Assembly (NCBI GenBank): GCA_050084515.1
Contig: CM114271.1
Location: 38,874,001 to 38,938,000 of the forward strand
DNA: 64,000 nucleotides
Direction: 5' to 3'
DNA from: Blasia pusilla
Taxonomy: Eukaryota
Shown here one piece after another: positions 14,001 through 59,501 of the stretch. Position 1 is the first letter of the stretch; the number at the start of each line of letters is the position of its first letter. The position numbers and the translations under genes were made by a program. Below the pieces are notes generated by a model. The model was not told the DNA's origin. It saw only the letters and a program-made list of their open reading frames with translations, and made no database searches.

Positions 14001-14046
14001 ATCTCAGACAATGAAGGGTTACCAAAGGTTTAGGTCTAAACAAGGA

Positions 14047-15269: not shown

Positions 15270-15560
15270 CATACCTGGAGTCCTGACTCCGAGTCTGGAG
15301 TTCGAGCAACTTTGGAAGTTCGCGCATTCGGGGAATGGACCCCCTGCAGTGGCAGCAGCAAGCCCTCGGAGTCTCGGACGATCTGGGAGTCTGCACGCTG
15401 GAGTCTGGACTGTGGAGTTCGGGCAACTTCGGAAGATCGCGCCTTCGGGATTCGGGGAATGGAGCCTCTGCAGCGGCAGCAACAAGCCCTCGGAGTCTCG
15501 GACGAGTGACGAGTCGGACGCAGGGTCTGGGAGTCTCGGACCTCGGCCACCCGACTCACC
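15270..15560. repeat. GC-rich internal/subterminal repeats of hAT element 1
   Basis: TTCGGGGAATGGA...CTGCAG...GCAGCA.CAAGCCCTCGGAGTCTCGGACGA occurs twice (~15328 and ~15451); GGAGTC recurs many times. Confidence 0.7.
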
Positions 15561-25600: not shown

Positions 25601-25723
25601 GCCGGACCGGATCAGCGGCGGGTCGAGGGGTGCGTCCACTTCCGATCTCCGACCGTACAAATCTGTCTGAAATCTTGGATCGTTCGAAGCATGCAGCATG
25701 CACGCATGCATGCATGCGGGCGA

Positions 25724-28593
25724 TTATGCCTTGTGGTGCCGTTGAAGAGACGCCGGGGGAGAGGGGAAGGCGGAGAGAGGAAGGCGAGGGGTGAGGAGGA
25801 CTTCGAGTGGAATTTCTTTGTGGAGGACGAGTCCGAAGCGTTCGGAAAAGTCCACGTCCTGGGGACTCATTCCGGCCGGGAGCTTCCAGTCGAAGCACTG
25901 GAGCAGGATGGCAATCGTGTGCTGCAGTATGAGGACGGCGAAGTTCTTCCCCGGACACATTCTCCTCCCGGATCCGAAAGGGAGCAGTTCGAAATCCCTG
26001 CCGTGGACGTCGACGCTACTCGACGCGAATCTCTCGGGCCAGAAGTCGTTCGGTCTTTCCCAAACCCTTGGATCTCTGCCGATGCCGTAAGCGTTGACGA
26101 AAACCATGCTCTCTGCCGGAAGGAAGTACCCATCGACCTCGCAGTCTGCCATCGAAAAATGCGGCACCATCACGGGGGCAGCGGGATGGAGCCGCAAGAC
26201 TTCCCGCACGATGGCGCGCATGTAATTCAGCTTAGGGACGTCCGATTCCTCCACCAATCGCTCCCGCCCCACCACTGCATCTATCTCCTCTTGAGCCTTT
26301 TCCAGCGCGTCGGGCCTCCTCAGTAGCTCCGCCATCGCCCACTCCAATGTCGCGGACGTAGTATCCGTTCCCGCGAGGAGAATGTCCTGTACAAAATCGC
26401 CCATCTCAGGAATTAGATCGCACGCCGTGACCGGTGCTAATCTGCGAGGAGGTGCCGGCTACCTACCTACCTTTCGCAGCAATCCATCAAATCAGATCAC
26501 GGCCAAGCTTGTAGAAGCGGGCTTCCATGTTCACATTTGCAATTTGAGCCCTGTTATGGTTTCTCTAAAAGCATCGACTAGTTCAAACGATCTGAGCACT
26601 TCTCGGATTAGATTTGTCGCATGCTGAAAGCTCCGAGTGCGATTCCATCTCACGACGTCCCAAGTCGCAACAGCGCTGCCGGCTTTCTACCAATTCACAG
26701 CCCGAGAACAGAGTGATCCGCCACGTTTTTGAAGAGCCTATTGCTCTCAGCAGGGTCGGAGATACGCCTCCGTCCTAGCTGGGGCTACAAATCGAACCCG
26801 GAAACCCCAGTTTCCATGCGATTCAAGGTCAATCAACTTCCAGCGAAATATGGTCCGCTCAGACCAAATTTCGCTGGAAGTTGCGGACCATATGACCCCA
26901 GGATCTTCCTGCCGTCCATCGATGGACTTCTGCCCCGTTCCGCCTTCACAGAGACTCTGAGCGGGCAATCAGTAGTGCACCTGATTTTCTTGATCGATCA
27001 TGAGCAAGGACTATTCGAATGATCATGACTCGAGTCTGCCAACAAGGACCCGTGCTCCTTGATTGTCTGATTTGTTCGAGACACAAGCCAGAGCATTTTT
27101 CCACGCTAGCAATTGCGATCATTCCCAAACAGAGTCAAAGAATTCAACAGCGTATGAAGTGGACTTACAAATAGCACCCCTTTCATCTCAGTTTCAGTTA
27201 GAACTCTCCCACTTTCGTCTCCCTGAGTCGATAATGTCAGCAGCACATCGACCAGATCCCTCAAGTTGTTCTTGTCTAAGGTCTGGCGATGCTCGTCGAG
27301 AATGGCATCGAAGAATTTGTGAATTTTGCCGAAGGACACTTTCATAGCCTTTCTACTCCCAAACAGATCGAAAGGCTTCAAAATAGGTATGAAGTCTCCC
27401 ATATCCAGTTGACCCAAACCCTCAAAACACTCCCTCAGGGTCTCCTCAAATTCGAACGATTCTTTAGAAATGTCTGCCTCGTCTCCAAAGTAGTTCTCGC
27501 TGGCCATCATGCGGGTCAAATTGTTTGCGATGAAAACAGAAAACTTGACGTTCATCGCCACTTCTTTTCCCCCTCGAGATCCTTCCAGTAAGTCCAGCAG
27601 TAAAGACGCCGTCTGCTCCCTTCTCATGACCTGTGAGGTCCAACTACTCCCAAGTCAGAATGCAACATATACGCACTCAAACCCACCGAGCATTCGTGAG
27701 CAGTTCCCCCATCTCTGCTCATCCTCAGAGTTCAGGTTCTAATTTACAACTGGACTCAGAAGCGATCCGGAACAGTGAGAACAACGTCTCGATCTGACCT
27801 CCGAGGGGTGGAAAATACAGTCGTTTCAGACCACAAATTCACCCCTGCGGATAGGACTCAGTTCTCCAATCCCCCGTCTAGCGAGGCCTGGATCTGGCCA
27901 GAAAGTTCTTCAACAAAATCGTTGAGATTTTGGGGTTTCCACATCGAGAACGTTCCCTTCAACTCCAAATGGCGGAAGGTCGATTGATTGATCGATTTCG
28001 GCATGACAACAGCAGATTTGGAGGAGTAAAAGGTCTACATTTTTGGTCTAACCATCAACCAGATCAAAGAATATTTACACGGAAATTTCAGAATTCTTGG
28101 AAATTCTGATTCCGACATAGTGAGTCATCACTGGTGGACGAGCAGGAATCCACACCTGGAAATCTTCAAGCCGCTTCGGGTTGAGGAGTTCCGTCATGTA
28201 CAGCTTCTTCAGGTACCGTGAGTCAACTCCGTAAGGCGACAACCCCATCAGCCGACTCTGGATATATTTCAGCTTCACACCATTTAGACGCGACGCAAAG
28301 GTGAGATCATGAGTCTTGAGAATCAATTCCGCTAGTTTTGGTGATGAAATTATCACGGCAGGAATCGCACCCATGCGCAAGGACGTGATCGGCCCGTACT
28401 TCTGCGAGAGCTCCATGAACAAAATGTGCGGCTTTTGGTCTCCGGCCAGGAGCGGAAGATTTCCCAACACAGGCCACGGCTTCGGGCCCGGAGGATATCG
28501 TCGGCGCCTCTTCGAACTCGCCAACTTGCCGAAGATGAGCAGCACCATCACTGCCACAGCGATCCCCGTGATCAATTCCCAACTCGCTTCCAT
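25724..28593 (-). CDS. Cytochrome P450, CYP71 clan (A-type); 3 exons 28593-28156, 27630-27169, 26386-25724; ~520 aa
   Basis: N-terminal TM anchor, PPGPKPWP, AGTDT (I-helix), EVLR, PERF and PFGSGRRMCPG (heme). GT-AG phase-0 introns join the exons into an uninterrupted frame. Confidence 0.95.
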
Positions 28594-30339
28594 CTTCGCC
28601 CGCTCGCACCAATCCTGTACCCTCGGATTTCCTACCTATATGAATGATATCGCCTCGGAACCTCTGAAACCAATCCGACCTGGTCGCCGCAGACTCGATA
28701 GATCCTGAGACACGACTCCCGTGCACACATCCGCAGATCCGGTGAGGTATCGCGCCACCGAGAGTTCTTTTGCTGGGATTTGCGAATCAGCCTCGATCGA
28801 TCGCGGCCCAAGATCTCCGAATGCGCACCGAACTAGCCGCATGGCTGGACCTTTCCACACCTCATGAAAAAGAAGACAGACGGAACTGGCACTTTTGCAG
28901 ACTCCATGAATTTGTGCACGTCCAGTTGTTCCGGGCAGTTGGTTGCACGACCTCTTCTCTCCCGGCCGATAGCCGGCAGATGTCTGCGTCTGGGAATTCG
29001 TCCCCTTTGTATCTCCTCGGTCCTCCACCGGGGGACTTATCTCCTCGGTCCTCCACGGGGGACTCGCTAATGAGTCCTCTCGAGTCGTGACTGGTTCAAG
29101 TTTTGAACAACCGTCACCGTCGATCGGAATGGAACGCCGTAGAAAGTCCGTCGACGGAGCGGGTAATCGCTACTGGACGTCGTGTCGTGTTCGTTTGCAA
29201 GGGCACTATGCACAGAGTCACCCGAGTGCGTCCGATTAATTATGAGCTAATCCTACATCGTTTTAGCATGTCAACGACTGTCGGTTGGGGAGTCGCGTAG
29301 CGATCATGCTGTCCTGTCAGGGGCGCAGTCTCCGTCTCCCTCCTCTCCGTGTTGGCGGGGCCCGTAAGGTGTCCGTCTCATGTGCTGGATCTTACGGAGT
29401 GAGCTCACGGCTGGACACGTGTCAATGGCCCACGGGTTAAGCGTTCGTTCCTCAATGCTGCGGGAGAAAGAACTTGTTTCCAATTCGGGAATAGTTCCAC
29501 TACGACTAATGGCCCAAAAGTCATTTAATTTAAATGAATATCTCATTTCCACCTATTCGTGAATTTCGGGAGGAAGGGGTCACACTTGGGACAGCATATT
29601 TCCTTACGTCAGGACATGCGAAACGTGCGAAAGAGGACTACATGCACTGGTGTAACATTCCACAAAATGACGTGGCTATTTTAAGTGTGAGGAGAATGAA
29701 TTTCCATACTATGGCACCATGGAAGAATCCATATTCTACGTCATAGGTAACAATATAAAGCAAATTCTCAGGAGCTAAAAGGTACCTCCTCGCACCCCCA
29801 AGACACACAACTAGTTGACTAATTCTCAAATCGAATAAGACAACATGGGATGGGAGAAGGATACCCTTGAATCAAACCATTTTCCACATAAAAAGTCTTC
29901 CGAGATATTTGCAGGCACACCTTTACCTTCGATCCAACTCCTGACTTATGAGAAAAATAATATAAGAGTATGTTACTACCTTAGACCACTTTATTTGTGC
30001 GTATTATTATTTGTCATTTTCGTGATTATGAATACTAATTACGAGTCGAATAATGGAATAATGGAAGGAGCCGTCATTACCTTAGACAGATTCATTTCTA
30101 AGTATTATATTTTCATTTGCAAAATGAAAAATCATGCAAGAGTGTGTCACCGCCTAACACTTCTTCATTTCTATTTATCATATTGTCAATTACATCATGG
30201 AAAACTTTGCAAGAGTGTTTCACAACCTAAGACCTCTTCATTTGCATGCATTGTATTGTCATTTGCATGAGGAAAATTAATGCGAGACTCTCATAATTTT
30301 ATTCCCACCCGATTATGACTTCATGGAGTAATAAGAACT

Positions 30340-32371: not shown

Positions 32372-33786
32372 AATAAGTTCCCTGCTAACTAAGTTGACAC
32401 ATATACTCATGTTTCACAAAAATAGTACTAGTTGTGACTCTTTTTCCTTATGTTACAAAGATTTCAATCACGACTAAGTAAACATGTCTAGCCATGCTGC
32501 CAAACACTAACTACCGATGAGATTAAAGATGAATTTCTTGAGTTGTCTCAAACTTAAGTCCCAAATATCCCTACTAATGGGTTTGACATGCCTGCCATCA
32601 TAAAGTACGATGTCCACATGCATACCTTTTTACTTGATGGGTTTGGCCAATTCTTTGTAAATCTTGTCAATTCTATTTAGAGATTCTCAAGTGCAATTTG
32701 AAAGTCTAGGAAGAATTTAATTGTAAATTTTTTTAATTTTTTCTTTAAATTTAAAAATATTCATTTTTAGAACATATAAAGAATTGTTCTTCGAACATGT
32801 TGAACACTTATATTATTATTATTAAGTTTTAAAAATTAAAAATTTTCTATTGGGATCATATCATCATGTGTATATTTCAAACGCCAATATTAGTAATGGT
32901 ATGTATTTTCTCATTTAAGTTCATTTAAAATTTATATGATGGGAACTTAATAAACTTAATTTGTGTACATTGCATGGACCATTGAATCTAAATTATTCCA
33001 TGAATACAGCAGTTTTTTGTTTATTGTTGCAGTATTTTTTAAGATTAACACTTTTCCCTTATCTAAATTCTCTTTTTTTAATTAATTTTTAATTCCATTA
33101 TTTTTCATGCCTTGCATGGGTAATTAAAACACAATCTATAATAATTTGAGCTTTATAAGTTAGGGAATTTTTAATTCTTTGGTCTATTTTTAACTTTCAA
33201 AAATAATTGTGCAAAATTTTATCTTTAAGAATTCCAAAAAATTGATCCTTTTCTTTTTTCATTAAAATATGAAAAAATGGAGAAATTATTAACAAGGATT
33301 TCTTATTGAACAAAACAATGAAAGTGTTAAATTTTCAATAAGAGAGAGATTTAGGGAAAGATGTAGTAAACTTTGAATAGGGAAGGGGAAGGGGAAAATG
33401 GATAATTTTCAAGAAGGGAGGGATAGTGGATTCCTAAGGGAAAATATTTTAATGTTTCCTTTTCAATAAAATAAGAAAATACATAGTAAAAGTATTTCCC
33501 ACCACCCTGCCCAACGCTTTATCCAAAGGGGTGAAGACCCTCTTTGGAGATTTAGGGAGGGCCCATCAATCCCTACCCATTCTTAAGGGTAGAATTTGAC
33601 TCCATCTCCCCATATTTATCCCCAACCTTTCATGGGGAAATGAGATAGACAATATAGGTAGGGTCAAATCCTCTCCATTCCTTTAGGGAGTAAAGTTATG
33701 AACCAGTATGCATCCCTCTTTAGGGTTTTGAGTTTTATAACAAACTTTAGAACAAATTCTTATTCGGAATAACATCGGGAGTAACA

Positions 33787-33945
33787 CGGTGCTTGGTGGG
33801 TCGGAGAACACGAATCCGAGTAGGAAGCACGAAGGTTGAGAGAACGGCGAAGGTGAAATGGGAAGAAACCCGGTGCTTGGAGGGTTGGAGAACACAAATC
33901 CGAGTAGAAAGCACGAAGGTTCGGAGAACGGCGAACAGGTTAAAA
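33787..33945. repeat. ~84-bp tandem duplication just left of the Gypsy insertion
   Basis: CGGTGCTTGG...GGAGAACAC.AATCCGAGTAG.AAGCACGAAGGTT...GAGAACGGCGAA occurs twice. Confidence 0.8.
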
Positions 33946-33997: not shown

Positions 33998-34477
33998 TGT
34001 CACATCTCAGTAGCCAATAGGCAGAGATCTATCGTGGATAGGGCGTAGGAGCCAATGGACTATCTTGAGTGAAACTTTGTCCCACGGTGTCGGATGAGGT
34101 TGAGGATAGGTCCGTTGTATCAGGAACATCGTTTTTGACAACTTTCCTGTTGAGGTCTTTCATAGTCGGGTGACTTGTTGACCAGGTCACTCGCCCCTGG
34201 TAACTTGTACGCGCAGGTTACCAGGAGGATTAGCTATTTTTCGGGGAAGAGTCTTTTGGCTCTTCCTAAGCTTATCTAAGGGAGGAATATGGCTTTCCCA
34301 AGCCATCTTTCTCAGGTTGGGCCATTGGAGCACCTCTCTTATATGTGTGTGGATAGGACTAGGGTGCTAGCATCCGGATTCCTTGATACAACAGGATGGA
34401 CGAGGCTCGATATGCCGATGTAGATTGAGGAGTGGAGTTTTAGGTTGGGTGTGCCATTTTTACTACTCTTTATTTTT
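33998..34477 (+). repeat. Terminal repeat A1 (5' LTR-like)
   Basis: Aligns end to end with 42978-43456. Confidence 0.92.
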
Positions 34478-36179
34478 ACATGAGAAAGATATCAAGGGGC
34501 TGGTAGGAATTCATTGTTTGCAGGCAGGCAAGCGAGTTGCCTCGGTGGGGAGCCCCTAGAGATGTTGGTTGGCGTTTCATTGGTCATTTTTCTATTCGGA
34601 AGGCCGTGGGCGAAAGCGCTGTTTTTTCTTCTCAGATTTTTCTCGTGTAGGTTAACGAGGGACAACAACAGAGTGGGAGTCACGCAGGAGCGCTCGGGTG
34701 CAATGCAAAGGGTTGGAGCGTTGGAGAATAGGCACAACGGGAGTGTAGAGAGAAAACGTTGAGAGTTTGTAGCGGCTAGGGAGGGGGCCCGCATAGGGTC
34801 GCACGTGCCCCCCCCCCCCCACCTCTTTTTTCGGATGTGGTTGGCGCCATGGTCGGCGCCAACATCGAAATCGTCGTGGTCGGTGCCTCCCACGCAACAT
34901 GGTAACCAAGTAGGGCGTACGTGGTAGCAGTGAAGGATATGTGGTAGAACTATGGGCAACGTGGTAGACGGGATGACATGGTTGAGTTCAGACGGAGTTG
35001 AGTAAGGTTACGGGGGCGTTTGGGGATGGGCGGAGAGGTTTGCGCGACGTGATGTTTTTTTTCGAGCATGGTTAGGAGTTGCGAGGGTTGTGCTGGGGAC
35101 ACACACGCCGATGCTGGCGGGAGGTTTGACGAGTGACCGAGGAGATGGTTGTGCTACGGACGTTGTCATATCACGTGGAGGAGTGAGTGTTGACGGTGTA
35201 GTAGGTTGGAGGGCATGATTAGGTTACCCATTCGAGTCCCTTTTTCCCACACTTATCTTACGTGATTGAGAGTACTAGGTACCAGATAGTAGCTGGTGCT
35301 AGGTGGGTGCAGTGATGGTGATGAGTGTAGACTCTTTTCATGTCTAGCATGTTGGTGGATATATGGCGGTTGTCAAGTAGGGGTCGCATGTATGACCCGA
35401 GCGTGTCGGTAGGTTAGGTGAGTTAGTGGGAGACTCATGGTGAGCTTGAGTGTTGGGTGTGCGTGAGGTTAGGTGTGTCATCACGGGATTGATGTTAGCA
35501 CAGGTGAGCTAGTGAGGAGTGTGGGAGACTCTCGGTGAGTTTGAGTGCTTGAGCGGATGAGACAGGGTTGTCATCACGGCGTTCTTCCAGGGTTCGGAAG
35601 AACTGGGTAGTGCGAGCAGTAGTAGTGGTGTGACACGGAGTGGAGTGAGATACCGAGGGGTTACGAGTGAGGAGCTACCGCGATATCCATCTGTGGTTGG
35701 ATCTTCATCACTAGACACCGGGTCTGGTGACGAGATCGCAGACGGAGGCAGTATCACTTGGCAAGAGATGGATGACATGGGCCATCGGGGCATGCATCGT
35801 TTCTCGGGTGCAGCGGGCACCATCGACTTAGATGATTTATCCATGAGTTCAACACGTGGTGCGACTTCCAGGAGATACGGACCCGACACGGTCCAACCCT
35901 TTCATGGCATGGAAGGGGTTGTTCCATCACTTGGAGGGTCCTCCGATGGATGACTACATGGAGTTTCGATCACTATATTCAGTAGAGATCGATGCCTAGA
36001 GGATGTATTGGGCTCCAGGGTATGTGTTCACTAGTGGTCACGAGGCATATGATGGGATCATGAGAGGAGAAAGATCCACACCATCAGCCCACAGACTAGA
36101 TGGAGAGGAGGGCAGTGAGACAGGCGATGTGGCAAAGACCTCTGGTGATAGAGGTCCACCAAGCTTTAGTCCCAAAGTG

Positions 36180-36900
36180 GAGTTCTTCCGACAGTTCGGG
36201 AACCAGGGCGTACGCACTGACAACTTGAAGAGTCTATAGGATTTTCAGCGACGATCGGGTGAGAGTCTGAGAGAGGCATTCACGCGAATGAGGAGGTTGA
36301 TCATTGCTACGTATGGAGCGACTGAGGCGCAGTCACTCTAGTATTGGTACGGGGTTCTGGACCGAGAACTACGGAGGAGAGTCCCGGATGCAGTGCTGAT
36401 TCACACAGCGAAGCCCACATTGAAGGTGGTCTTTGAGTTGTCTGAGCGTGTTAAGCTCAACATGAGTGAAGAGCAGGTAGTGACCGCTGGATTTTCTTGA
36501 GAGTCGACGGGCAAAAGCGATGGTGATCCCACAAGTGCCACAGCGAGCACCAGTACCACGGGAGCGGGCCAGTGTGCCCAGAGAGCAGGTTGGGTACCGT
36601 GAGCCTATGAGGCAACGAATCCTATCTACATATGGTGCCCAGCAGGGACCGATGTTGTCTTGTTGGAGGTGTGGAAGGGCCCATAGGCAGAGAGACTGCA
36701 CACAGCATGGGAGAGGACCACGAGCGCCTCCGATTGCTCAGGAGCCATAGAGGATGGCCCCACCATAATACTAGTGTGACCATTGCCACAGATATGGTCA
36801 CACGAGGGATAGATGTTTTGACCTTCGTCGAGAGGTACGTCCGGAGGTAGGTCGAGGGCCTCGGGGCGGTCATCCTGGAGGAGGTCGGGGAGTTCTTACT
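36180..36900 (+). pseudogene. gag: gag region with two zinc knuckles
   Basis: FQRRSGESLREAFTRMRRL (capsid MHR-like), CWRCGRAHRQRDC, and in a shifted frame CDHCHRYGHTRDRC. Confidence 0.75.
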
Positions 36901-37659
36901 AGACGTGGTGGTAGAGGACCACCACCAGCAAGAAGAGATGGAGCAGGAGCACCAGAGCTGGCACTTCTCTCATGCATCGATTAGTTGGAACAAAGGATTG
37001 CTGCCACGACAATGATGCAGCTCAGGGAAGGCGCAGAGCCACGAGCAGCTAGTGTGGCTCCAGCTTCTACCTCTTACCCTGACGTGGGTGAGGATCTCGC
37101 TAGTATGGGGTTTATGTGTAGTGCAGCTCAGGTTGAGACGGCTGCAGTGGTAACTCGGGGTGCTGCAAGAGGCACCCAGCCATCGAGAGGTGGAGTTGAG
37201 ATTGACCCATCGGAGGGGACCGATGGACGGTAGGCTAGGGTTTCACAGTCATTCACATTGTCGGAGACACTACACACACCATCGATGGTGCCTCAACAAC
37301 CAGCGGTGCCTACAGCTCAAGCAGGTACGTTGACGTCACAAGGAGTTGGAGTGACAACTCCTATGTCGGCTCAAGTGGAATCAATGTCGACCATAGTGTT
37401 GGAAGTGGGCACCAGAGTGAGTCAAACTCTGCTATTTTCCGCCATAGAGTTGGCGACGTTGGGAGTTAGACCAGTTGAGGTGTTCCGGTTGGCCGTCATG
37501 TTGTGTGAGCGTGGCGAGGTGACTGCTTCTTGTTCAGAGGTAGTTGAGGAGGTGGTGGACTTGCCCTAAGAGCCGATGCTCGAGACGTCCCCCACAGAGT
37601 CATGGCATGCAGCGGCGGCGAAGTTGATAGATATGCCAGCTCGACCGGCCATAGAGCGA

Positions 37660-38110
37660 GCAGTGGTGACACCTGGAGTAATATTACTGAATAATCAAGC
37701 TGGAGTATTTTGCTTGGTTAGTCCGATGGGAACAGAATATCACCCGCATCGCGTCCTTCTTGATTCCAGAGCGCAGCCCTTGATGTTAGGGAAGGCGGCA
37801 TGTTTAGCGTTGGGATACGGAAGGCCGACATTGAGCCTTGTCCCTTCCAGATACAGACCTTGATTGGGGGCGTATCACCCACGCAGTATATGACTTGACA
37901 AGAGATAGTTGTTAGAGTCCAACCAGAGCATGCGATGGATAGTGCTATGGTGCGCACACGTGAAATTATGACACCAGCTGAGTCGTACGATGTATTGGTG
38001 GGAAATACAATGTTATATCCCCAAGGATTCATCCTTGACTTCTGGGAGGAGACCGTTGCTTATCGACCAGTGTGGCGGTCAGATGACGGGCGGATGAGTC
38101 AGTTACCCGT
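37660..38110 (+). pseudogene. Retroviral-type aspartic protease, decayed
   Basis: RVLLDSRAQ (DSGA-equivalent) and downstream YDVLVGN (flap-distal ILG-type motif). Confidence 0.7.
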
Positions 38111-38474
38111 GCAATTTGCGGGACGAGGTGGTCGATCACGAGACGAGTCTGTGACCACGTTGGCAGCTTTCACATGTAGTGTTAGCTGGCCAGGAGAGTT
38201 GTTGGAGGGGAATGCACATGCGGAGGATGTGCCAGTAGCAGATAGTCCCATGGAGAGACAGGCCATGGCGGGTATCTCTTCCCATGTTGGCGAGACCTCT
38301 TCACCATTGTGGGGTATGACTCGAAAGCTACAGAGGAGTGTATACAACCTCATGAGGTAGGCGTGGAGTCATGCCTTTATCCCGGAGCAGCAAGATTCAG
38401 GTGGCGATCAAGACCCTGGAGTAGAGACGTTGATCCCATTGGATACCACACCCGTTGTGTGGAGTGTCTAGAGG

Positions 38475-39420
38475 AAGGTGTTAGGGTGTTAGATCTTTTC
38501 AAAGGGATTAGCACAGGATTGGTTGCGGTAATGCAGGCAGGGATACGGGTGCATTAGTACCTTTATGTGGAGAGAGATGAGACCGCGCGGCGAGTATCAT
38601 TACGTCACGTAGCGAGATTGGTCTAGAGGTATCCTGAGTTGTTTCCGATATCTGCAGTATGGGAATATCATCATACACTACCCACCGACATCTCTTTGGT
38701 GGGGGCGTAGGATCTAGATAGAGTTGGCACCATTCATTTGGTGATTTCTGGATGGCCATGTCATGGTCATTCATCACCTGGCCGAGGGTTTAGATTGCAG
38801 GATCCGAGATCAGGGATGTTTTGGGAGATGCTGCGAGTAGTACGACACTTGCAAGAGAGTCACACATCTTCTCCGGCGTACATTTTGGAGAATGTGTTGT
38901 TGTTGGGAGACACTTGTGCACGTTTGATGACGAGTGTGCATCAGGTGACCTACTGTGTTGCTAGATGCAGCGAGAGTTGGATCATGCACCCATCGTCCAC
39001 GACTATGGTGGATGAACCTAATACCATCAGAGGTACTGAGTCAAGCATACGATGGAGTCTAGAGAGCACCACATCTCACAGTGGATGCTATTTTGGGCTC
39101 ACGGCATCGATCTCAGGTAGTGACATGGGATGATAGACCACCGTTGGCGGTGGCCAATAGAATCGGGGAGTTGACGGCACCCTTACCTACGTTGGTGAGC
39201 TTCCCAACATCCCATGCCTTTCGTCAAGGAGGGCTAGGCATGATTTGGGATGAGGTGACCTGAGCATTAGAGGAGCCTATAGAAGATGAGCGCGAGCGCG
39301 CCATGGGGTTTGCTACATGTACTACGGTGGTGCCAAGTATGACAGAGGCATCCGGGAGATAGATGTTGGGGCACGCAATGGACCTCAACTGTCTCACATG
39401 GATAGTCAGCCTAGGTATGG
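38475..39420 (+). pseudogene. DNMT3-like C5 cytosine DNA methyltransferase domain within pol
   Basis: Motifs in linear order across frame breaks: VRVLDLFKGI (I), YVE (II), VISGWPCHGHS (IV), DPRSGMFWE, YILENV (VI), HRPRLWWMNL (VIII), ERERAMGF (IX), LGHAMD (X). Confidence 0.9.
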
Positions 39421-39713
39421 CTGAGCAGAGACGGATGTGAGTGTCATCCATGCCGTCACGTCCACGAGTTGGACCATTGCCTACAGGGTCTCTACAGGCA
39501 TTGGCTGGGGGCGGGACGAGGAGAGATAGGCACCCATGGACTTCTTGGAACGTCGTTCGAGCGGAGAGTGAGAAGGCGGCCAGAGTAGCACATGTTCATT
39601 TTTTGGATGTGGAGCATGGTGTAGGAGGTCAGAGTGGAGTGGCTATTGCAGAGGTGGCTAGGGTTGCTACATAGCAACCAAAGCTGGAGATTGCATCCTC
39701 TCCGAGTGAGGTC

Positions 39714-41108
39714 ATGATGGAGACTTACGAGCCTATGATACGTCTCAAGTTGATAGGAGGAGAGCGACGGCGAGTTCATAGGTTTCTGAGAAGGCATGTT
39801 AGTTGTTTTGCCTTCAGTATGAGAGACTTGGGTACGCTGAAGGGTCCCGGGGTACGGATTGAGTTGGCTAGTGATACGCCGATCTTTTGTCGATCCTACT
39901 GGTATTCTAATATGGAGCAAGCCTTGATTCAGAGTAGGAGTCAGGACTTGTTGGAGGCAGGACTTGTGGAGTTATCACATGGGGAGTATGCATCTGCCAC
40001 AGTCATGCCGGCGAAGAAGGATATGTATGGCAATTGGACGGATAGGCGGATGTGTGGAGATTACCGTCCTATCAACCGACAGACGAGGTCAGATTGGCTC
40101 GCCATGCCTACACCTGAGGAGATCTTTGATGCGGTAGGGCATGCAAAGATCTTCAATACTTTAGATCTCCGTGTTGGCTATCATCAGCTTCCTATCAGGT
40201 TGGAGGACAAGAAGAAGACAGCATTATGGGGGATGGATCGGTTTGGGAGAGATTGCTTGTATCAATGGCGATTCTTACCATTTGGGTTGAAGAATGCGCC
40301 CGCGGAGTTTCAGAGAGTGATGGATAGGATTCTGGCTGGCTTGGAGTTTGTACGATGTTACATAGATGATATTCTTATCTTCAGTTCCACGGTTGAGCAA
40401 CATGAGCGACACTTGGAAGAGGTGTTTCGGCGATTGCAGTTACATGGACTTGAGTTACATCCAGGCAAGTGCACATTCTTTTAGGAGCAGATTGAGTACT
40501 TGGGACACACCATATACCCGAGTGGATTAGGCGTTCAGCACACAAAGGTAGAGGCTCTTGGGAAGATTCCACGCCTTACAGGTGTGATTCGAGTCCGAGC
40601 ATTTCTTGGATTGGCGAGCTTCTATCGACGGTATGTCAAGGGTTTTAGTACGATCGCAAAGTCTTTGACCTTTTTGACAAGACTTGATCAGGTTTGGTTG
40701 TGGGGAGATAATCAAGAGCAAGCATTTCAGGAGCTCAAGGACAGGTTGACGTCCTCACCCATTTTACAGAGACCGGTTAGGAGTCGCCCATTCCAATTAC
40801 ATACGGATTGGAGCGTGTTGGGTCTAGGAGCAGTGCTTACTCAGAGAGATGACGAGGAAAGGGAGTTCATTGTGGCTTACGCAAGCCGATCGAACAACAT
40901 TGCAGAGGCAAAGTATAGCTCTTACAAGGGAGAGTGCTTGGCTGTAGTGTGGGTTGTGGCACATTTCAGGTGCTATTTATTCGGCAACCCTTTCACACTT
41001 ATCACTGATCATCAGCCGTTGAGGTGGTTGATGAAGTCTGACAAGCTTACGGGAAAGCTTGCCAGGTGGGCTCTATTACTACAAGAATATGAGTTTGGTG
41101 GTTCATAG
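39714..41108 (+). pseudogene. pol: Reverse transcriptase and RNase H
   Basis: RMCGDYRPIN, LDLRVGYHQL, LPFGLKNAP, YIDD; single in-frame TAG at 40482-40484; then LHTDWS, VAYASR, ECLAVVW and TDHQPL. Confidence 0.96.
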
Positions 41109-41499
41109 GCCAGGTCGGGTGAACCAAGATGCGGATGGGTTGGTCATAACCCATGTCCGAGTCAGAGAGACGACACATGAGCTTGATGGCACGGAGAGAG
41201 TGATGAGGAGATGGTGCCCGGTTGGCATGCATCTGCCTATCTTTGTTGGTTGACTATGGTAGGTCAGCCATAGGTGATGACTGTAGTGGTGGGGTTGGAT
41301 GATGAATCTTTGGATCCGTAGATCAGTGAGGAGGCGACAGGTGGTCATGATATCCATGACGACGTGGAGGTTATGGAGTTCTTGCGCATTGGCGTCATAG
41401 CGAGCATAGTGAGTGTTAGGGAGCGGGATCGGATCCTACAGAGAGCCACGAGGTTCAGGTGGGAGGGGACTCACATTTTGTGGGTATGGGGAGATGGTA

Positions 41500-42560
41500 G
41501 GATACGAGTGGTACCTCATCCTTCCGAGCAAGCACGTGTAGTGCGACATGCCCATGAGGAGTTGGGACATTTTAGAGTAAAGCGTACTTACACCTTACTC
41601 CATGTTCAAAATTCGTGGTGCGGCATGCATACTGGGGTACAGAAATTTGTGGCCAGATGTATGGTATGTGACAAAGTGCGAGCATCTTGCAATGCTCCCA
41701 CTCCGCAATTACATCATTCGCCGATTATTTTTTTAGGTTATCGGTGGAGTTTAGACTTTGTGGGACCTTTGCCATTGATGGGGCATCATCACAGGTATGA
41801 GTTGGTCATTTCTCCAAGTGGATACAAGGCGAGTGAGTGAATAGCTTATGCGTTTCTAGATCGTGTGCTTGGTCACTTTGGTGCACCGGCGGAGGTGTTG
41901 ACTAACCAGGGTACCGAGTTCATGGGAGAGTTTCAGGCCTTGTGTGATCAGGCACTAATAGATCACCACACCACGTCCAAAGATCATCTTGAGGCGGATG
42001 GGTTGGCAGAGAGAGTAGTATAGACGGTGAAGAAAGGATTGAGCAAGTATGGCTTGCAGCGGGGATAGTTGAGGGAATGGGACCTACATTTGCCATTGTT
42101 GGCTATGGGTTATCACTTTAGTCGGCAGGCATCCTTGGCGTCATTTTCATCGTACTTTTTTCTCTTTGGGAGAGACCTAGATTTACGTGAAGCTATTCAA
42201 TATGACATGGTGCAGGTGTTAGATCTTGATGATCCAGATGTATGGGTACAAGCATGTTCTCAAAGGGCGGAGATTTTTCGTAGAGTTATGCCTATGGCCT
42301 TTGAGAACTTAGCTATTGCTGAGCATAGAGATACATTGAGGTATGCGACCATTCGTGGAGGAGGTTATTGTCCAAGTATTAGGAGGTTTCATCCTCGAGA
42401 TTATGTGTATTTACAGCAGGCGGCACCCACGACGCTAGATGTCACTACAGGGCGCATGATCCTACGTGTGCGCGAGGTATTACTGACCGGAGTTCTCATA
42501 TTGGAGGGACGGGATGGTATGTTTTGGAAGGATCGTGTGCGCAATTATGCGCCATATCAT
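41500..42560 (+). pseudogene. DDE integrase, decayed
   Basis: HHCC region HAHEELGH...CMVC; WSLDFVGP; VLTNQGTEF (D-to-N at the catalytic position); DGLAERVV. Confidence 0.9.
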
Positions 42561-42617
42561 CTTCCAAACGTAGATGGGACAGTGGATCCAAGCTTGGCAG
42601 TGGTACCTGTAGGCTTG

Positions 42618-42761
42618 AGGTGTATGTTGTGCAGATCTGCGAGGGGTGCAGCCATCATGTTGGTATGTGATGGTTGTTCTCAAGGGTGGCATATGTCATG
42701 TCTGAACCCCCCTCTTGATGTAGTTCCCACAGGACGATGGATATGTCCGAGATATGTATAG
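42618..42761 (+). other. PHD finger at the pol C-terminus
   Basis: CMLC...MLVCDGCSQGWHMSCLNPPLDVVPTGRWICPRY fits the C4HC3 pattern with the last Cys changed to Tyr. Confidence 0.9.
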
Positions 42762-42841
42762 GATAGTAGGTCATGTTAGAGAGATGAGATATTGTCTATC
42801 TGGAGTTAGGGGGATCCAACTGCCAACTAGGGGAGCGGTTC

Positions 42842-43594
42842 TGTGATGTCCATATATATATATGAGTTGATTTCTGTACATGTGTGGATCTACCCGGGTG
42901 TGGGGAAGATTGGTGTTATGTAGTGTAGATGTGACCAGCGATGTATGTTGTGTAGCGATATGGATGCACACGAGAGTTGTCACATCTGAGTAGCTGATAG
43001 GCCGAGATCTATCGTGGATAGGGCGTAGGAGCCAAAGGACTGTCTTGAGTGTAACTTTATCCCACAGTGTCAGATGAGGTTGAGGATAGGTCCATTGTGT
43101 CAGGAACGTTGTTTCTGACAACTTTCTTGTTGAGGTCTTTCACAACCGGGTGACTTGTTGACCAGGTCACCCGCCCTGGTAACTTGTGCGCGCAGGTTAC
43201 CAGGAGGATAACTATTTTTAGGAGAAGAGCCTTTTGGCTCTTCCCGACCCTATATAAGGGAGGAAGATGACTTTCCCAAGCCATCTTTCTCATGTTGGGC
43301 CGCTGGAGCACCTCTCTTGTATGTGTGTGAGATAAGACTAGGGTGCTAGTGTCCGGATTCCTTGATAGCGCAGGATGGACGAGGCTCGATATGCCAATGT
43401 AGATTGAGGAGTGGAGTTTTAGGCTGGGTGTGCCGTTTTTACTACTCTTTATTTTTGTTGTGTGATGTCCATGTATATGTATGAGTTGATTTATGTACAT
43501 GTGTGGATCTATCCGGGTGTGGGGAAGATCGGTGTTGTGTGGTGTAGATGTGACTAGCGATGTATGTTATGTAGCGATATGTATGCGCACGACA
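42842..43594 (+). repeat. 3' terminal region B1 (42842-42975), A2 (42978-43456), B2 (43461-43594)
   Basis: TGTGATGTCCAT...GATCTA.CCGGGTGTGGGGAAGAT...CACGA occurs at 42842 and 43461 on either side of A2; purine-rich AGGGGAGCGG lies just before B1. Confidence 0.92.
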
Positions 43595-50076: not shown

Positions 50077-52867
50077 CTAGTTTGTATACTTTCGCTTCCT
50101 CCGTTCTCCAGCCCCAGCTCTCGTTGTAGGTTCTGCCTTAACAGGCACAGGAGGAAGAACTGGTGCCTGTGTGACAGGAGGAGGTGGGGGTGGAGCAGGT
50201 TCTTCCGGCAGAGGCCGTGGCAGAATGTGTTTTAGTCGGTTGTTTCGATGATGTTTCCAAAAGTAGAATTGTTGTCTATGTGCCACCTCCTGTACACAAA
50301 AAAACATGTAGACATGAAATTTCTTCAGGCATCTGATTAATTCTGGTGGATCCATTTCCATCTTAAGGCAGTTTGAACCTACACAAACTACAAGCATTCA
50401 CAATGTGTTTCACCACCAGTAACCTATCTTCAAGAAACTAAATATCAATATTCCAAAATATAACATTTCAAAACCTTGTTTGCTGGGTGAGCCATAGCAC
50501 TGCGGAATTGTGGACTTTGCAGCAACTCAAGAAAGAAGAGGGCATGAGGATACCTGCGACATTCAAGGGAATAATCAGCCACAAACTGAACCAAATTGCT
50601 CAAAAACATCAACTGGAGTCGAGTCATCTCAAGTTCGTGTGCTTTTGGTTTACAAGAAAAACAATCAAAGATGGCAGTTGCTGAAAGCTGTTGCTAGTGC
50701 TTGGATGATCCAGCTTTGACAAGACTAGCGCTCAAGTTCAGTTTCAACCATACACTTGGTGATAGGACACTACACCCACATTATTTGGCAAAGCAAAAAT
50801 CCGCCCTTTTGAGATGGACAACTGAGTAATTTCATCCAACACTAAGGAAGGGGACAAGGACATCAAGCCATTCCCATACAAACATTATGGTAGGAAGGGT
50901 TTAATTCCAGTGTCTAACCTTGAACTTATGTGGCCTAAGAAGTGGTCAAGGAGAAGAAGGGGTATGCTCTCTTATGGATATCACACCGCATAAGTACCAT
51001 CTTCTAGATCTCACCCAAAAGACAGCTTTCTCTGGACCATGCTTGCTCAATTCAAGACAGGGTCCACAAAAACCTGACTGTCTCTTAACCTCAGGTCAGT
51101 AAAATCACCGGTAAGTAAGTACCTTTAGTAAGAACCTGTCTATCTCTTATACCTACTTTAAGACTACCTCAGCCAAGAGACAAGTCCAGGAACCATTGAG
51201 GATCCCAAGTATTTACCACCATTATACCGTGATTAAGGCCTGAACTAGTTTGCACTGTAAGTTTACCCACAGCCTTCATAACCTTAATCACTATACTGAA
51301 GGACATGGTGTGTTTTGCCGGGAACAGAGTGAATTGAAAAGACCTAATTTGTGCACAGAGTTTTAGTCAAGATACTACATTGATGAAATACTATGTTGAC
51401 CCTTCTGGATCCATGCCTTCACTCGCTTTCCTAGACACTACTGTCAAAGAAGCCATCGACCAGACCCATAAACTATATTTTGTGAATCTCAGACTCTCCA
51501 AGGAGCAAGCTGGTTTTCTAGGCCTAACACTGACAAATGACAAGACGGCATTCTCCATGAGAAGGACATCACCAATGAATAAGCACCCACACACACCTTG
51601 GCACCAAGAGAAATTCAGTGAAAATAGACACTTAGGGCCAACTGTGTAGTTGCCAAAACTACTGAACATCTACATACAAAAAATGTAACAAGGCCTCTAG
51701 AATGGCAATCCTTCCCAGGAAAATTTGATCTCAAGTATTCCTTCAGATCTCTTGAAGAAAGTATCATCCTCATGACCTAAAGTTCACCTAGTGCAACCAA
51801 TTTTTGGTGCAGTAGTATAACCTTCTAAATAAGAAAGTTCACTTATTTGTATGTCTCAGTTACATCTCACAGGGGAGGCAAGATCTGCCAAACAACTTCC
51901 AGTCTGTAACAATATGAATACAGCCATAACGCGCGAGTACAAAGAGCCTAGCTTCTGCCAATCTCTGTTAGAGCCAATTGCCAAAACATAAGTTAGCTCG
52001 TGAGACATGCTCACAAGGAGTTAGGTCATTTTGGAGTCAAGCGTACGTATGACTTGCTTCAGATTCAGTATTGATAGTGTGGTATGCGAACTGATGTTCC
52101 TCACGTCTCATTCAGAGCCCACGAGCTCTATGCTCTTTTGAGGTGATTTTGTTTCTTGAGTACCCTTGAGACTTGCAACAGAACGCTTTCATCCTTGCGT
52201 AATTAAAATTCCAACTATAGGATCGCTCACTGAAGTTCCAAGTCCTCTTTGTTTCAATAAAGTAAGCCACTAAATGTACATTTCAACACTGGCAGAATCG
52301 CGAGGCGAGGTGCTGCAGAAGAAAACAAGTTCGTTTTTCACTTCCAATTAGAGGCACAGGAGACAGGTTTGGTGCACACAGAATGAGTGAAGAAAACCAA
52401 GCATGAGGTGGAATCTCCCTAATCCTGGACAGCCTTCGAGATATTCCCGTGAAGAAAGAGGCAACTCACACAATAAACTTTGAATATTCAGGGCGCTGCC
52501 AGTACTGGAGGTACTTAAGGTAGCCCACAAATGCCTCATCATCAAAATAACGATTTTGCGCTAAATCTGCAAAAGCAAACAGAACGTCAGGTGTTATTCG
52601 TTTCGACTAAAATTCGTACTTGTCATGAGATCAGCCGGTGATAACCTACGTGTACGTTCTCCTGAAAATTAAGACTTAAAGCAAACTTTGCATAGAAGGA
52701 AACGGAACACAAGTATCCATATGAATGAAATGAGAGAGAGAGCACTCACAATGTATGTAAGTAGGATTGGCCAGACATTGGATAAATTCAAGCTCAAGCT
52801 CAAACCGCTGGCGACCTCCGTCAGTCTCTTTCAAACCCCCGTCCTTGACGCCTCCATCGTTCTGCAT
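50077..52867 (-). CDS. MED31: Mediator subunit 31 (SOH1); exons 52867-52750, 52566-52470, 50553-50475, 50289-50077; ~168 aa
   Basis: RFELELEFIQCLANPTYIH|YLAQNRYFDDEAFVGYLKYLQYWQRPEYSKFIV|YPHALFFLELLQSPQFRSAMAHPANK|EVAHRQQFYFW; GT-AG introns with consistent phases. Start codon and extreme C-terminus are less certain. Confidence 0.95.
52000..52100 (+). mobile_element. ~100-bp Gypsy integrase fragment in MED31 intron 2
   Basis: GTGAGACATGCTCACAAGGAGTTAGGTCATTTTGGAGTCAAGCGTACG aligns with 41541-41640. Confidence 0.75.
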
Positions 52868-54946: not shown

Positions 54947-56270
54947 TGTCGTGCGCTTAGATACTCATCACTCCACAATCCACATTGTTGATCACATCTA
55001 TACACAAAATATCACTAATCTTCCCAACACACGGGTAGATCTGCACATACTTAAATATAGACTCGGATAGATTTGCAAATATACAAAAATAGACTTAGGT
55101 ATGTACACCAAGACTATATAATGTTCACGTGCGCATACACATTACTATATAATTGACATCATTCATTGCAACTACACACCAAACATCATCGATCTTCCCA
55201 ACATAGAGATAAATCCACACAAAAGAAAGACTCATGCATGTACACTAAGACGACATAACCGCCTTTGTAATTTGTGGTTAGTTCCACTACCTCCAAGTAC
55301 CATATATCACATCAACACAACATGCTCTATAACCTTATACATATTTGGGACGTAACCATCATTCCGTGGGAACCACATCAAGAGGCACGTTTAGACCTGA
55401 CATGTGTCACCCTCTAGAATAATCATCACACACCAACAAGGTGGCTACATCCCTCGAAAATTTCACAAAGTTATCAACAACCAAGGTCATTCACACAACT
55501 CCTACATACGCAAGCACTCTATACTCACAAATACGCTACACACGAAAGGAGTTTACACTTGACACCATCTCTACACCCATCCGGCATAAGGTCTATCCAA
55601 TACCTAGCATCCTTAATGACAAGAGACAAGTGCAAGAATATAGTGGGACTCAAATAGGTAACGTAAACATGCGTGCCATCACCCTACTATGCAATCAACA
55701 ATAATTGCTGCATGTCGTATGGAAACCTTTGTGGCACCATAATTTCCTCAAATAACAAGTTGAACTTCCCATCAACAAATTCGGACTACCCATCGGCATC
55801 AGCACATGTATCACCACCTCTACCACTCTATTGCGAATGGTCGATGGGGATCATTCATCTCAACCCTCGTCAGCATAATATTGGCGAGTCAGAACTCTGT
55901 TGAAAAATCTTGATGGCTAGCGGATCCTACCCCAAATAATGATCCATGACTTGAGTCTCAAGTCAAAAAATTCAAGGAAAATTTCTCCTTCCAAATCTCA
56001 TGTTGCGCTCTTGTTGATGCTAGCTACCCGCATGCTACACCTAAGCGCTACTCCCCAAAACTTTGCTACTACCCTACGTTAATTTGCTACTAGAAAAGCT
56101 CGTTAAAGAAAAGGCACTACTTTTGTGCACGACCTTCCAAATGGAAAAATTGACCTAACATCAAATACAACATCTCTCCAAAGGCTCTCTAGCAATGCGA
56201 CTCAATTGCCCACCTGCACACATCAAATCCCTCCTACCCCCTTACATCTTTCTCAAGTGAAATCAAAACG
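54947..56270 (-). mobile_element. Internally deleted, decayed relative of the DNMT/PHD Gypsy element
   Basis: Terminus TGTCGTGCGC at 54947 is the reverse complement of the B2 end; two B-like repeats; PHD remnant LLVCDDYSRG*HMSGLNVPLDVVPTE at ~55330-55440; leader similar to 34478-34650 at ~56090-56262. Confidence 0.8.
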
Positions 56271-57850: not shown

Positions 57851-59501
57851 CGGCAGCAAACCTAAATGAGTACCTTTTATTCAATTCTGAAGATTTTTCT
57901 CAGTCTGAATTTTTTTGGGTCTCGACCAGCAGAGTAGTGATGGAGGTCCATTTTTGCCAGCTGCCTCCATCACTTCAACTTGGCAGTGACGCATCCCCCG
58001 GTGCCTCCACTCCTCAGATCTCACAGTAACCTTTGCAGATCTTGAGGAATCTGACTTCATACCCCCGAATGCTTTCAGCTGCACAGCTTGGAGCCTATCA
58101 GTCTGTTTGATGCTAGCATCCTACGCGGTTGCACCGTATTCTATTGAGGACCAAGTGTAGTGCAGAATGATAGAGTTTAATTCAGACATCATGCTGTGGG
58201 CCGTGTACGACCCACGCCCAACAATGTGAACCTCTGGAATTACCAGGGCCTTCAAGTGCTTATTCACTAGTCACCTCTGTGGAGTGACGTCTGCCCGCTG
58301 AACCAGGTTCAAGAGACTCACTACGGAGTAAGTCATGGCATCATCTCCGAACTTCAATAGCTCACTCACCACCTCCTTTGTGTTTCACAAGCTCTTGGAT
58401 TGCCACTCCCAGCTTTGCCAGGAGAGGAAATAACCTTATAGGCCGTCCAGATCAAACTCATATTTTCTCATCGGATCTGAATGAAATCCTTGACTGATAA
58501 CTCTAATCACAGATATTCAACTTGTTTTACCCTGCAAAATATCTCAAAAGAAGGTTACTACCCAGTTCTTAGAAGTGGTAAGCCCACACTCATGAAATCT
58601 GTTCTGCAGTGACCATCATCCTACCATCTTTTCTGTCTGGGCTTTTACATCATTTTTTTGTTTCGTTGCCTTCCTCAATTTCTGCTGTGTGATACAGAAT
58701 TGTCGGCAAAGTCATTGATAGGTGAGTATTCTGCTCCGGTCACATCTGGTGGTTGAGCTAGTCCTATAATGTAGTGTCTGTTGTAGTGTTGTGATCATAG
58801 ACCCCATGCCCTGGTTGGGCAGTGCTAGAAGGATGAAGAAGTGAAGAAAGTACCATATGAGAGGAGAGAGGCTCTCTCAGATAGTGGGTGTATATCATAC
58901 ATAGTTTTTGTTCGGAGCTTCTAGGTGTCCACCAAGAAACGTTTTACAACACTTACCTGTTTTGGATCTCAAAAGACAATACTTAGCAGTGCAGCAGCGT
59001 TGGGCAGTGAATCCAGGAAAATGGTGAACAGATCCATTTGTAAGAAGTTAGCAATTTGAACATAGGTTGTTGCTCCGTGCAGTAAATTTGGTCCCAGAGA
59101 AGGGGGTTTTCATCCCCACAAGAAAGAGGGAGACGGTACTCATTAAGTAGTGCCTGTTGTGGCCTTGCGACCATAGACCCCGCGCCCTGGTTGGACGGTG
59201 CTTGAGACTGGGATGGGTGTAGAGAGAGAAGCAAGTGAAGAAGGTACCATATGAGAGGAGGGAGAAGGGTTTAGGGTTTAGGAAGATAAACCTAGAGGCT
59301 GGTGGAACTGGTTATTTAAGGTGTTAGCTCAGTGGAATGATTTTGTCCTCAGGTGATGATATGCAGGTCTGGGAGGTCTAGAGACTGGAAATGATCGAAT
59401 CATGTACCATGCCTAAAACGGGTTGCCATTCTTAAACTTGGTGGCAGCAATTTTGCTCTGGTCTTCTTAGACATCAATAGATTGCAAACAGGCTGGATCC
59501 A

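Follow-up and report, generated by a model that had tools for sequence, protein, structure and literature searches.

The presence of a DNA methyltransferase (DNMT) and a PHD finger in the same retrotransposon raises the question of whether the two work together, DNA methylation being written where histones are read. Such an element is found in Blasia pusilla, in a stretch of 64,000 nucleotides from contig CM114271.1 (assembly GCA_050084515.1, positions 38,874,001 to 38,938,000, forward strand); the whole stretch is indicated as the window, and positions refer to it. A single Gypsy-type retroelement lies at 33998-43592 on the plus strand, with domains in the order Gag, protease (PR), DNMT, reverse transcriptase (RT), RNase H (RH), integrase (IN) and PHD. 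The initial annotation of its 38475-42761 portion, which runs exactly from the start of the DNMT to the stop codon past the PHD finger, proposed a self-contained epigenetic targeting system, coupling histone-guided integration with self-deposited DNA methylation. The answer reached here is partly different. The copy in the window is a dead Gypsy-DNMT3 element; for its relatives, it is regarded as fairly probable that DNMT and PHD are joined by stop codon readthrough, that the PHD finger tethers the integrase to nucleosomes unmethylated at lysine 4 of histone H3 (H3K4), and that the DNMT acts separately.

Domains in the window were called from stop-to-stop open reading frames (ORFs) and Pfam, plus tblastn with related proteins. 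The features of the coding region are the following.

35767-37872, plus strand: Gag region and protease remnant, in several frames and with stops (tblastn with Marchantia protein P0054, translations)
36661-36699 and 36775-36816, plus strand: two CCHC knuckles in Gag (motif reading)
37753-37776, plus strand: protease motif remnant VLLDSRAQ, with DSG turned into DSR
38474-39420, plus strand: DNMT3-like C5 cytosine methyltransferase domain, decayed (Pfam PF00145, tblastn, motifs)
39672-39680, plus strand: in-frame TAG followed by CAA CCA, candidate programmed-readthrough site (junction conserved in relatives)
40059-40481, plus strand: reverse transcriptase (RVT_1, E 1.4e-25; YIDD at 40359-40376; ORF 39675-40484)
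40701-41090, plus strand: RNase H (RT_RNaseH, E 7e-36; ORF 40485-41108)
41520-42066, plus strand: integrase, with H2C2 zinc domain at 41520-41684 and decayed catalytic core (Integrase_H2C2, E 1e-10; tblastn; translation; zinc-domain ORF 41322-41840)
42069-42620, plus strand: integrase C-terminal region (72-75% identity to Marchantia proteins)
42621-42761, plus strand: PHD finger of the C4HC3 type, last Cys changed to Tyr, with terminal TAG (PF00628, ligand table)

Relatives were taken from two sources. A HMMER search with the 230-residue tail against 1.84 billion representative proteins gave 4514 matches at E <= 0.001, 238 of them at E <= 1e-30; the co-distribution of domains was judged on the best 150 representatives of these tail matches. 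Metagenome contigs, scanned with an alignment of the integrase tail, provided 80 loci of 263 confirmed relatives, including the intact L024 and L028. Gag-PR, DNMT and RT-RH-IN-PHD follow each other in this order, on one strand, in 17 of the 80 loci; most of the others are too short upstream. Loci L036-L039 are internally deleted: Gag (reference residues 1-556) is joined straight to the integrase C-terminal tail, where all eight PHD ligands are present.

The Gypsy assignment stems from the order of the pol domains: RVT_1, RT_RNaseH and Integrase_H2C2 are found in sequence, the protease motif remnant lies upstream, and the rve core of a DDE integrase is found in the intact relatives. No phage-integrase match, as would be given by a tyrosine recombinase, was reported by Pfam; together with the H2C2 and rve domains, this sets the element apart from DIRS retrotransposons. 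It is not a chromovirus either: Pfam reported no chromodomain for the tail in the window or for the second ORF of L024, and a PHD finger is found in its place. Decay is extensive. At least four frameshifts and about 20 stops are found in the Gag-PR-DNMT part (35880-39671), nine internal stops interrupt the RT-RH-IN-PHD frame (39675-42758), and the integrase core features stops plus a short deletion. The window copy is dead, fairly old and non-functional.

The coding region is flanked by direct repeats, arranged as follows.

33998-34477, plus strand: 5' direct repeat A1, similar to a long terminal repeat (LTR), beginning TGTCACATC, 90% identical to A2
42838-42973, plus strand: short direct repeat B1, 91% identical to B2
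42978-43456, plus strand: 3' direct repeat A2, 90% identical to A1
43457-43592, plus strand: short direct repeat B2, 91% identical to B1, completing an A-coding-B-A-B layout

Between A1 and A2 there are 34 transitions and 11 transversions. The two A repeats lie on either side of the coding region, but the extra B on each side of the 3' A makes this something other than a simple LTR pair. The same layout is found in metagenome loci L018, L053, L056 and L064. A target-site duplication and a primer-binding site, sought by eye around A1 and B2, gave nothing convincing. According to the text of PMC5890265, KnitGypsy-Dnmt3 of Klebsormidium nitens is of the Gypsy type and carries a Dnmt3-related domain, evolving at Ka/Ks below 0.2; its repeats are also arranged A-coding-B-A-B, as in a DIRS retrotransposon, and its domains are Gypsy-like. 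The integrase tail of the window is closest to Marchantia polymorpha (72-75% identity), then to Calypogeia fissa and K. nitens (49-53%); the K. nitens proteins P0044 and P0048 match the tail at E 1e-38 and 4e-33, and one K. nitens protein carries a DNMT. Because of the DNMT3-related domain, the repeat layout and the kinship with K. nitens proteins, the element in the window is assigned to this published Gypsy-DNMT3 kind.

The DNMT reported by the initial annotation is supported by Pfam, tblastn and motifs. PF00145 matches the ORF at 38711-39133 (E 1e-5; 25.6 bits, cut-off 22), and a Marchantia Gag-PR-DNMT protein, used as tblastn query, aligns its DNMT part over 38474-39620. Six motifs are legible (38489-39389), spread over two frames, with eight stops and one frameshift near 38940-38960: I (38489-38518), IV (GWPCH, 38750-38773), VI (ENV, 38882-38896), VIII (38991-39017), IX (39288-39311) and X (39366-39389). 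Motif IV reads PCH instead of PCQ. The fragment is 66-70% identical to DNMT-bearing proteins of Marchantia and Calypogeia, 60-70% once Sphagnum is included. Among solved structures, the DNMT of an intact relative matches DNMT3A, 3B and 3C best (E about 2e-7), and the bacterial M.HaeIII and M.HhaI rank below them. Beside the DNMT, Pfam matched no ADD, PWWP or other reader domain, whether in the pieces from the window or in the first ORF of L024 (1369 residues).

The PHD finger closes the integrase frame, as had been proposed: PF00628 matches 42621-42752 (E 1.9e-10; 41 bits, cut-off 24), and the stop at 42759-42761 makes it the extreme end of the frame. Seven of the eight zinc ligands are kept; the eighth, a Cys, is a Tyr, and the full C4HC3 pattern is therefore absent from this copy. 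Judged by its sequence, the domain is a PHD finger by descent, broken in the window. At the family level, where a lack of ligand conservation would have spoken against the initial annotation, the ligands are conserved: the full pattern is found in 138 of the 150 representative tails, and in 39 of the 63 tblastn segments covering all eight ligand positions (80 loci and the window), a sample that includes many copies decayed in their other parts, and some elements represented by more than one assembled locus.

By sequence, the solved chains nearest to the finger are CHD4 PHD2 (E 1.7e-15), PHF12, KMT2D, PHF21A (BHC80), DPF3 and the first PHD of KDM5B, with KAT6A, BAZ2A/B, ATXR5, AIRE and UHRF1 also near. 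The tail of the intact L024, modelled with AlphaFold2 on a 34-row alignment (pLDDT 79), consists of helices, a small beta-barrel and the finger. When compared by Foldseek, the finger model superposes on the fingers of DPF3, DPF2, ATXR5, BAZ2A/B and BHC80 with rmsd of 0.6-1.6 A; barrel plus finger show a weak likeness to the Tudor-PHD cassettes of PHF1 and UHRF1 (rmsd 12-15 A), and the part upstream of them resembles Ty3 and PFV intasome chains. Among the nearest fingers, by sequence and fold, the titles of several entries name a complex with unmodified H3 (4q6f, 3t6r, 5hh7, 5vab, 2puy). The top matches are not of the ING/BPTF type that binds H3K4me3. The finger is accordingly predicted, from sequence and model, to bind the H3 tail unmethylated at K4. 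About 20 residues before it, a C-x-P-C-H motif is nearly invariant in the relatives, possibly as an interface or a further metal site; in the window (42543-42566, NYAPYHLP) both Cys are changed to Tyr.

DNMT and PHD had been described as lying on one polyprotein. In the window an in-frame TAG (39672-39674), conserved in relatives, separates the two, and in this subfamily they can be joined only by readthrough. The intact L024 and L028 feature a 1369-residue Gag-PR-DNMT ORF and a 1047-residue RT-RH-IN-PHD ORF, in the same frame, with one TAG between them. Many database proteins respect the same border: those of 1033-1171 residues start just past the stop, those of 1189-1451 residues finish at it. 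In 18 distinct junctions, from the window and the loci (stops at L024:5083, L028:4661, L020:502 and L064:7604, among others), TAG or TAA is followed by CAA or CAG and then by YYN, with CAA decayed to TAA in one of them. Additional decayed loci keep the site, two of them with TAA or GAA in place of CAA. The residues flanking the stop differ widely among relatives. UAG-CAR-YYA is the tobamovirus-type readthrough signal, as stated in the text of PMC3159437; the TAG CAA CCA of the window fits this type I motif, and in many relatives the second codon after the stop is CCC or CCT, not YYA. Because stop-CAR-YYN is conserved despite the differing flanks, and because of the tobamovirus-type motif, we infer programmed readthrough in the subfamily of the window. 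A distant relative, L080, features TGA CGG, at a stop nearer to the DNMT end.

Both domains are maintained by purifying selection in the relatives. Between L024 and L028, dN/dS (Nei-Gojobori) is 0.059 for the RT-RH-IN-PHD ORF, 0.044 for the PHD (45 codons) and 0.115 for the DNMT (315 codons); these ratios are rough, as dS is above 1 and saturated, pN being nonetheless far below pS. Key residues are conserved across 134 DNMT segments from the family: 128 of 131 keep the catalytic Cys, 130 of 133 the Glu of ENV, and 130 of 134 the Arg of motif VIII.

Independent distribution of DNMT and PHD across lineages had been named in the initial annotation as a finding that would speak against it; no such independence emerges. 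Among the best 150 tail representatives, DNMT is found in 49. The stretch from RNase H or RT to IN is visible in 39 of the 150, and 33 of these carry a DNMT, located between RNase H and IN in 30 and upstream of RT in 3; the remaining six start no more than about 160 residues before RT, and could have had a DNMT upstream. The DNMT polyproteins lacking a PHD (P0121, P0111, P0137, P0133) all end less than 110 residues past the integrase core, short of the PHD position. Every polyprotein long enough to be judged carries both. At first sight many PHD-tailed polyproteins seemed to lack a DNMT, having no precomputed PF00145 label; this was rejected, since phmmer with the family DNMT was positive in nine out of nine.

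Two architectures can be distinguished. Type A, Gag-PR-DNMT-RT-RH-IN-PHD, is found in the window, in Klebsormidium and in Marchantia. Type B, RT-RH-DNMT-IN-PHD, is commoner and more diverse (P0117, P0080, P0023, P0223 and about 45 other representatives); one of its members is named pol of Scenedesmus sp. PABB004, a chlorophyte. In many type B proteins an extra stretch of about 350 residues, with no Pfam match, follows the PHD, and its C-terminal end looks alike in several of them. In the tree of IN plus tail (FastTree, 162 rows) one clade, with support 84, lies among the type B diversity and gathers five out of five type A proteins, 27 out of 29 proteins with RNase H directly followed by IN, and Klebsormidium P0044. 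In the DNMT tree (134 rows) all 50 DNMTs that are not of type B form one clade, with a single type B inside (support 90), and the DNMT of P0048 is found among type A. The pattern indicates that DNMT and PHD tail are co-inherited, with about one change in the position of the DNMT.

The explanation favored here, then, is the following. In working relatives the main translation product would be Gag-PR-DNMT, and leaky readthrough of UAG-CAA-YYN would yield a minor Gag-PR-DNMT-RT-RH-IN-PHD product. The DNMT looks like a catalytically competent, DNMT3-like enzyme. The PHD finger would tether the integration complex to nucleosomes without H3K4 methylation, selecting target sites in the manner of the chromovirus chromodomain, and the DNMT would have its own, separate action, with a newly synthesized or just integrated copy as its probable substrate. 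That a DNMT of this class methylates the new copy of its element was an idea put forward in 2018, in the text of PMC5890265.

Several observations weigh against this explanation, the saturated dS being one of them. Some readers of H3K4me0 use acidic residues before the first Cys, which are not evident in this PHD, and its H3 specificity is read solely from the nearest solved relatives. P0017 and the Klebsormidium P0048 are continuous between DNMT and RT, with no stop; readthrough would therefore be a trait of the subfamily. The pairing of the domains has gaps: of about 25 loci with upstream sequence, five, which correspond to three distinct elements, lack a DNMT on the strand of the element, and P0027 and P0180, in the type B part of the tree, feature RNase H and then IN, with no DNMT between; these two may have lost it. 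Co-inheritance from one lineage counts, besides, as a single evolutionary observation, not as a repeated independent association. The trees are by FastTree only and unrooted, with key supports of 84-90, and the DNMT tree was built without a host DNMT3 outgroup, so that the DNMT may have been captured once or repeatedly. Finally, the DNMT domain of Klebsormidium gave no detectable methylation in yeast, a result called inconclusive by its authors (text of PMC5890265).

A closer partnership of the two domains, where the PHD guides the DNMT of the element to chromatin unmethylated at H3K4, as the ADD does in animal DNMT3, and integration is coupled to self-methylation, would match the targeting system originally proposed. 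The constant company of DNMT and PHD tail wherever it can be judged, purifying selection on both, and a PHD of the class that reads unmodified H3 all agree with it; in type B, moreover, the DNMT adjoins IN, and one mature DNMT-IN-PHD protein is conceivable. In the subfamily of the window, however, an in-frame stop follows the DNMT, and about 1,100 codons, those of RT, RNase H and IN among them, part it from the PHD, so that a single reader-writer protein resembling DNMT3 with its ADD is not found; Pfam reports no ADD, PWWP or other reader adjoining the DNMT. Retroelement polyproteins are typically cut apart by their protease, and this processing is expected to part DNMT from IN-PHD. Such a reader-writer unit is thus considered unlikely, and what stands of the targeting proposal is the conservation and co-inheritance of its components at the family level. 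A broader version can be offered, tentatively, for the whole family: one ancient green-plant lineage, spanning chlorophytes and streptophytes, in which DNMT and PHD-IN are an obligate pair. In type B, a mature DNMT-IN-PHD fusion would read nucleosomes unmethylated at H3K4, insert and methylate the site, as a mobile counterpart of DNMT3-ADD; in bryophytes, the DNMT would have moved upstream of a tobamovirus-like leaky stop, setting its dosage relative to IN.

The PHD might instead have nothing to do with the choice of targets on histones, and have another task, such as contact with a host protein, import into the nucleus, assembly of the particle or structural support for the C-terminal domain of the integrase. 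PHD fingers are a common accessory domain, in varied positions, of many unrelated green-algal transposons (in the texts of PMC8557442 and PMC9940879), and the C-x-P-C-H motif just before the finger hints at an interface or additional metal site there. Yet the closest solved relatives, by sequence and by fold, are all binders of the H3 tail, and the end of the integrase is the position held by the chromodomain in chromoviruses (PMC6673714, in its text, citing Gao 2008); a PHD of this kind is rated quite improbable. As to DNMT and PHD being functionless passengers, or an artefact of nested insertion or mis-assembly, the window copy, full of stops and frameshifts, could suggest as much, and nesting can place a host-like domain inside a transposon. 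Recurrence of the same order in 17 loci and in dozens of unrelated database proteins, together with dN/dS far below 1 for both domains and conserved catalytic and zinc-ligand residues, effectively refutes this. The tethering of IN by the PHD finger, with a DNMT acting on its own, is the explanation retained.

The initial annotation also reported a second copy with a PHD remnant. The remnant is real, and lies at 55344-55457 on the minus strand, as shown by blastn and tblastn:

55125-55468, minus strand: 3' remnant of a second related element, made of a decayed PHD-coding end (55344-55457), a spacer and a B-like repeat

This sequence matches 42627-42975 at 69% (blastn) and is the 3' end, about 350 bp, of a copy from a different subfamily. 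Its PHD remnant (tblastn E 1.4e-4; ligand string ..CYHGR.) keeps three of six aligned ligand positions, and contains two stops. A lone 34-residue fragment of integrase core at 51997-52098 (plus strand), 74% identical to P0004, is probably another relic of the family.

The window is AT-rich, with a background GC content of 0.30-0.43 and a few GC-rich blocks interspersed. The element corresponds to one of them, at 34-44 kb, with GC about 0.51 and G strongly exceeding C; this skew was considered as a signature of decay and rejected, as intact relatives share it, which makes it a family trait. Other GC-rich blocks (GC 0.50-0.52), at 6001-8000, 14001-16000 and 24001-30000, are possibly further transposon copies. 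Two tandem GC-rich units of 78 nt, 87% alike, are located at 33774-33935, about 60 nt upstream of A1. Two ORF pieces at 59481-60167 (plus strand) resemble, by eye, exons of a gene for Mediator subunit 6.

In the best-matching sequencing run, 44,671 DNA-contig pieces align to the element at 95% identity or above. This abundance points to a large repeat family, depth not being equivalent to copy number. Three RNA runs with the same organism label contain 42, 50 and 40 reads on the element, out of about 10-12 million records each. Most of these reads are 95-99% alike, and thus come from other copies, with little bearing on the locus in the window. Some reads (4, 13 and 9 in the three runs) begin to match at 41541 (41541-41573), and are preceded by one shared, unrelated sequence: this suggests that a truncated copy elsewhere is transcribed inside another transcript.

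In Marchantia, P0002 (Mp_7g09570) and P0003, annotated as hypothetical proteins with a "PHD-type domain", combine, within a single gene model, matches to pieces of the PR-linker, DNMT and IN tail of the element; their appearance is that of transposon relics spliced together, not of host genes. The same explanation applies to several "hypothetical proteins" of Marchantia that feature DNMT or PHD domains. More generally, a cytosine methyltransferase encoded by a retrotransposon upsets the picture of methylation as a weapon of the host against transposons. The family extends from Klebsormidium to bryophytes and, through the one named Scenedesmus protein, to chlorophyte algae, with two domain orders; in one subfamily the two halves would be dosed through the conserved, leaky-looking stop.

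Much of the framework is already in print, as judged from the texts concerned: a Gypsy element carrying a DNMT (PMC5890265, 2018), PHD fingers in retrotransposons (PMC6673714, PMC8557442, PMC9940879) and retrotransposons with a reader plus a DNMT (bioRxiv 10.64898/2026.05.21.726589). A search for earlier descriptions of Gypsy-DNMT3 in bryophytes, or of its PHD, returned only PMC5890265 and bioRxiv 10.64898/2026.05.21.726589, most subscription journals, figures and supplements being outside its reach. What appears to be undescribed is the PHD tail of Gypsy-DNMT3, the fact that it is constantly paired with the DNMT, the occurrence in bryophytes and in a chlorophyte in two domain orders, and the conserved leaky-type stop; these family-level points are modestly new.

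Among known systems, KnitGypsy-Dnmt3 is the closest. It shares Gypsy domains with a DNMT3-like domain in the coding region, the repeat layout, purifying selection on the DNMT (Ka/Ks below 0.2 there, 0.115 here) and, through K. nitens proteins, the same clade. It differs in that the best matches of the window are in Marchantia and Calypogeia, and in that the in-frame UAG-CAA-YYN splits the coding region here, while the K. nitens P0048 is continuous. PHD is not mentioned in the text and legends of PMC5890265, figures and supplements lying outside this check; at the PHD position the two K. nitens proteins examined are either cut off before it or diverging, and their nearest relatives, P0019 and P0020, have a PHD.

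In chromoviruses, too, the integrase ends with a histone reader, which is believed to guide integration (PMC6673714, in its text, citing Gao 2008); here the reader is a PHD, with the unmodified H3 tail as predicted ligand instead of H3K9me, and a DNMT is added. An accessory PHD is also present in other LTR retrotransposons of the green lineage, such as Gypsy-7a_cRei and REM1 (texts of PMC9940879 and PMC8557442); in Gypsy-7a_cRei, however, it is listed before the integrase, and the legend in PMC9940879 lists no DNMT. For readthrough, the parallel is with type I (tobamovirus) signals and with gammaretroviral gag-pol, where the proportion of upstream to downstream product is set by an in-frame UAG with CAR-YYA after it (text of PMC3159437); the candidate stop described here is located past PR-DNMT and before RT, instead of at the gag-pol border, and is followed by CCC or CCT as second codon in many relatives.

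With animal DNMT3A and 3B the element shares a DNMT3-type catalytic domain and a PHD-type reader of the class binding H3 unmethylated at K4. Here, in contrast, Pfam reports neither ADD nor PWWP, and the reader belongs to the integrase, at a long distance from the DNMT and past a stop, an arrangement from which autoinhibitory coupling is not to be inferred. The EpiLTRs of Cymbomonas and Euglena, as described in the text of bioRxiv 10.64898/2026.05.21.726589, are LTR retrotransposons combining, like the present family, a chromatin reader with a cytosine methyltransferase; their reader is a chromodomain, their DNMT is DNMT4-like and placed elsewhere, and an adenine methyltransferase is added. The streptophyte Gypsy-DNMT3 is explicitly considered, in the text of the same preprint (bioRxiv 10.64898/2026.05.21.726589), as a separate acquisition.

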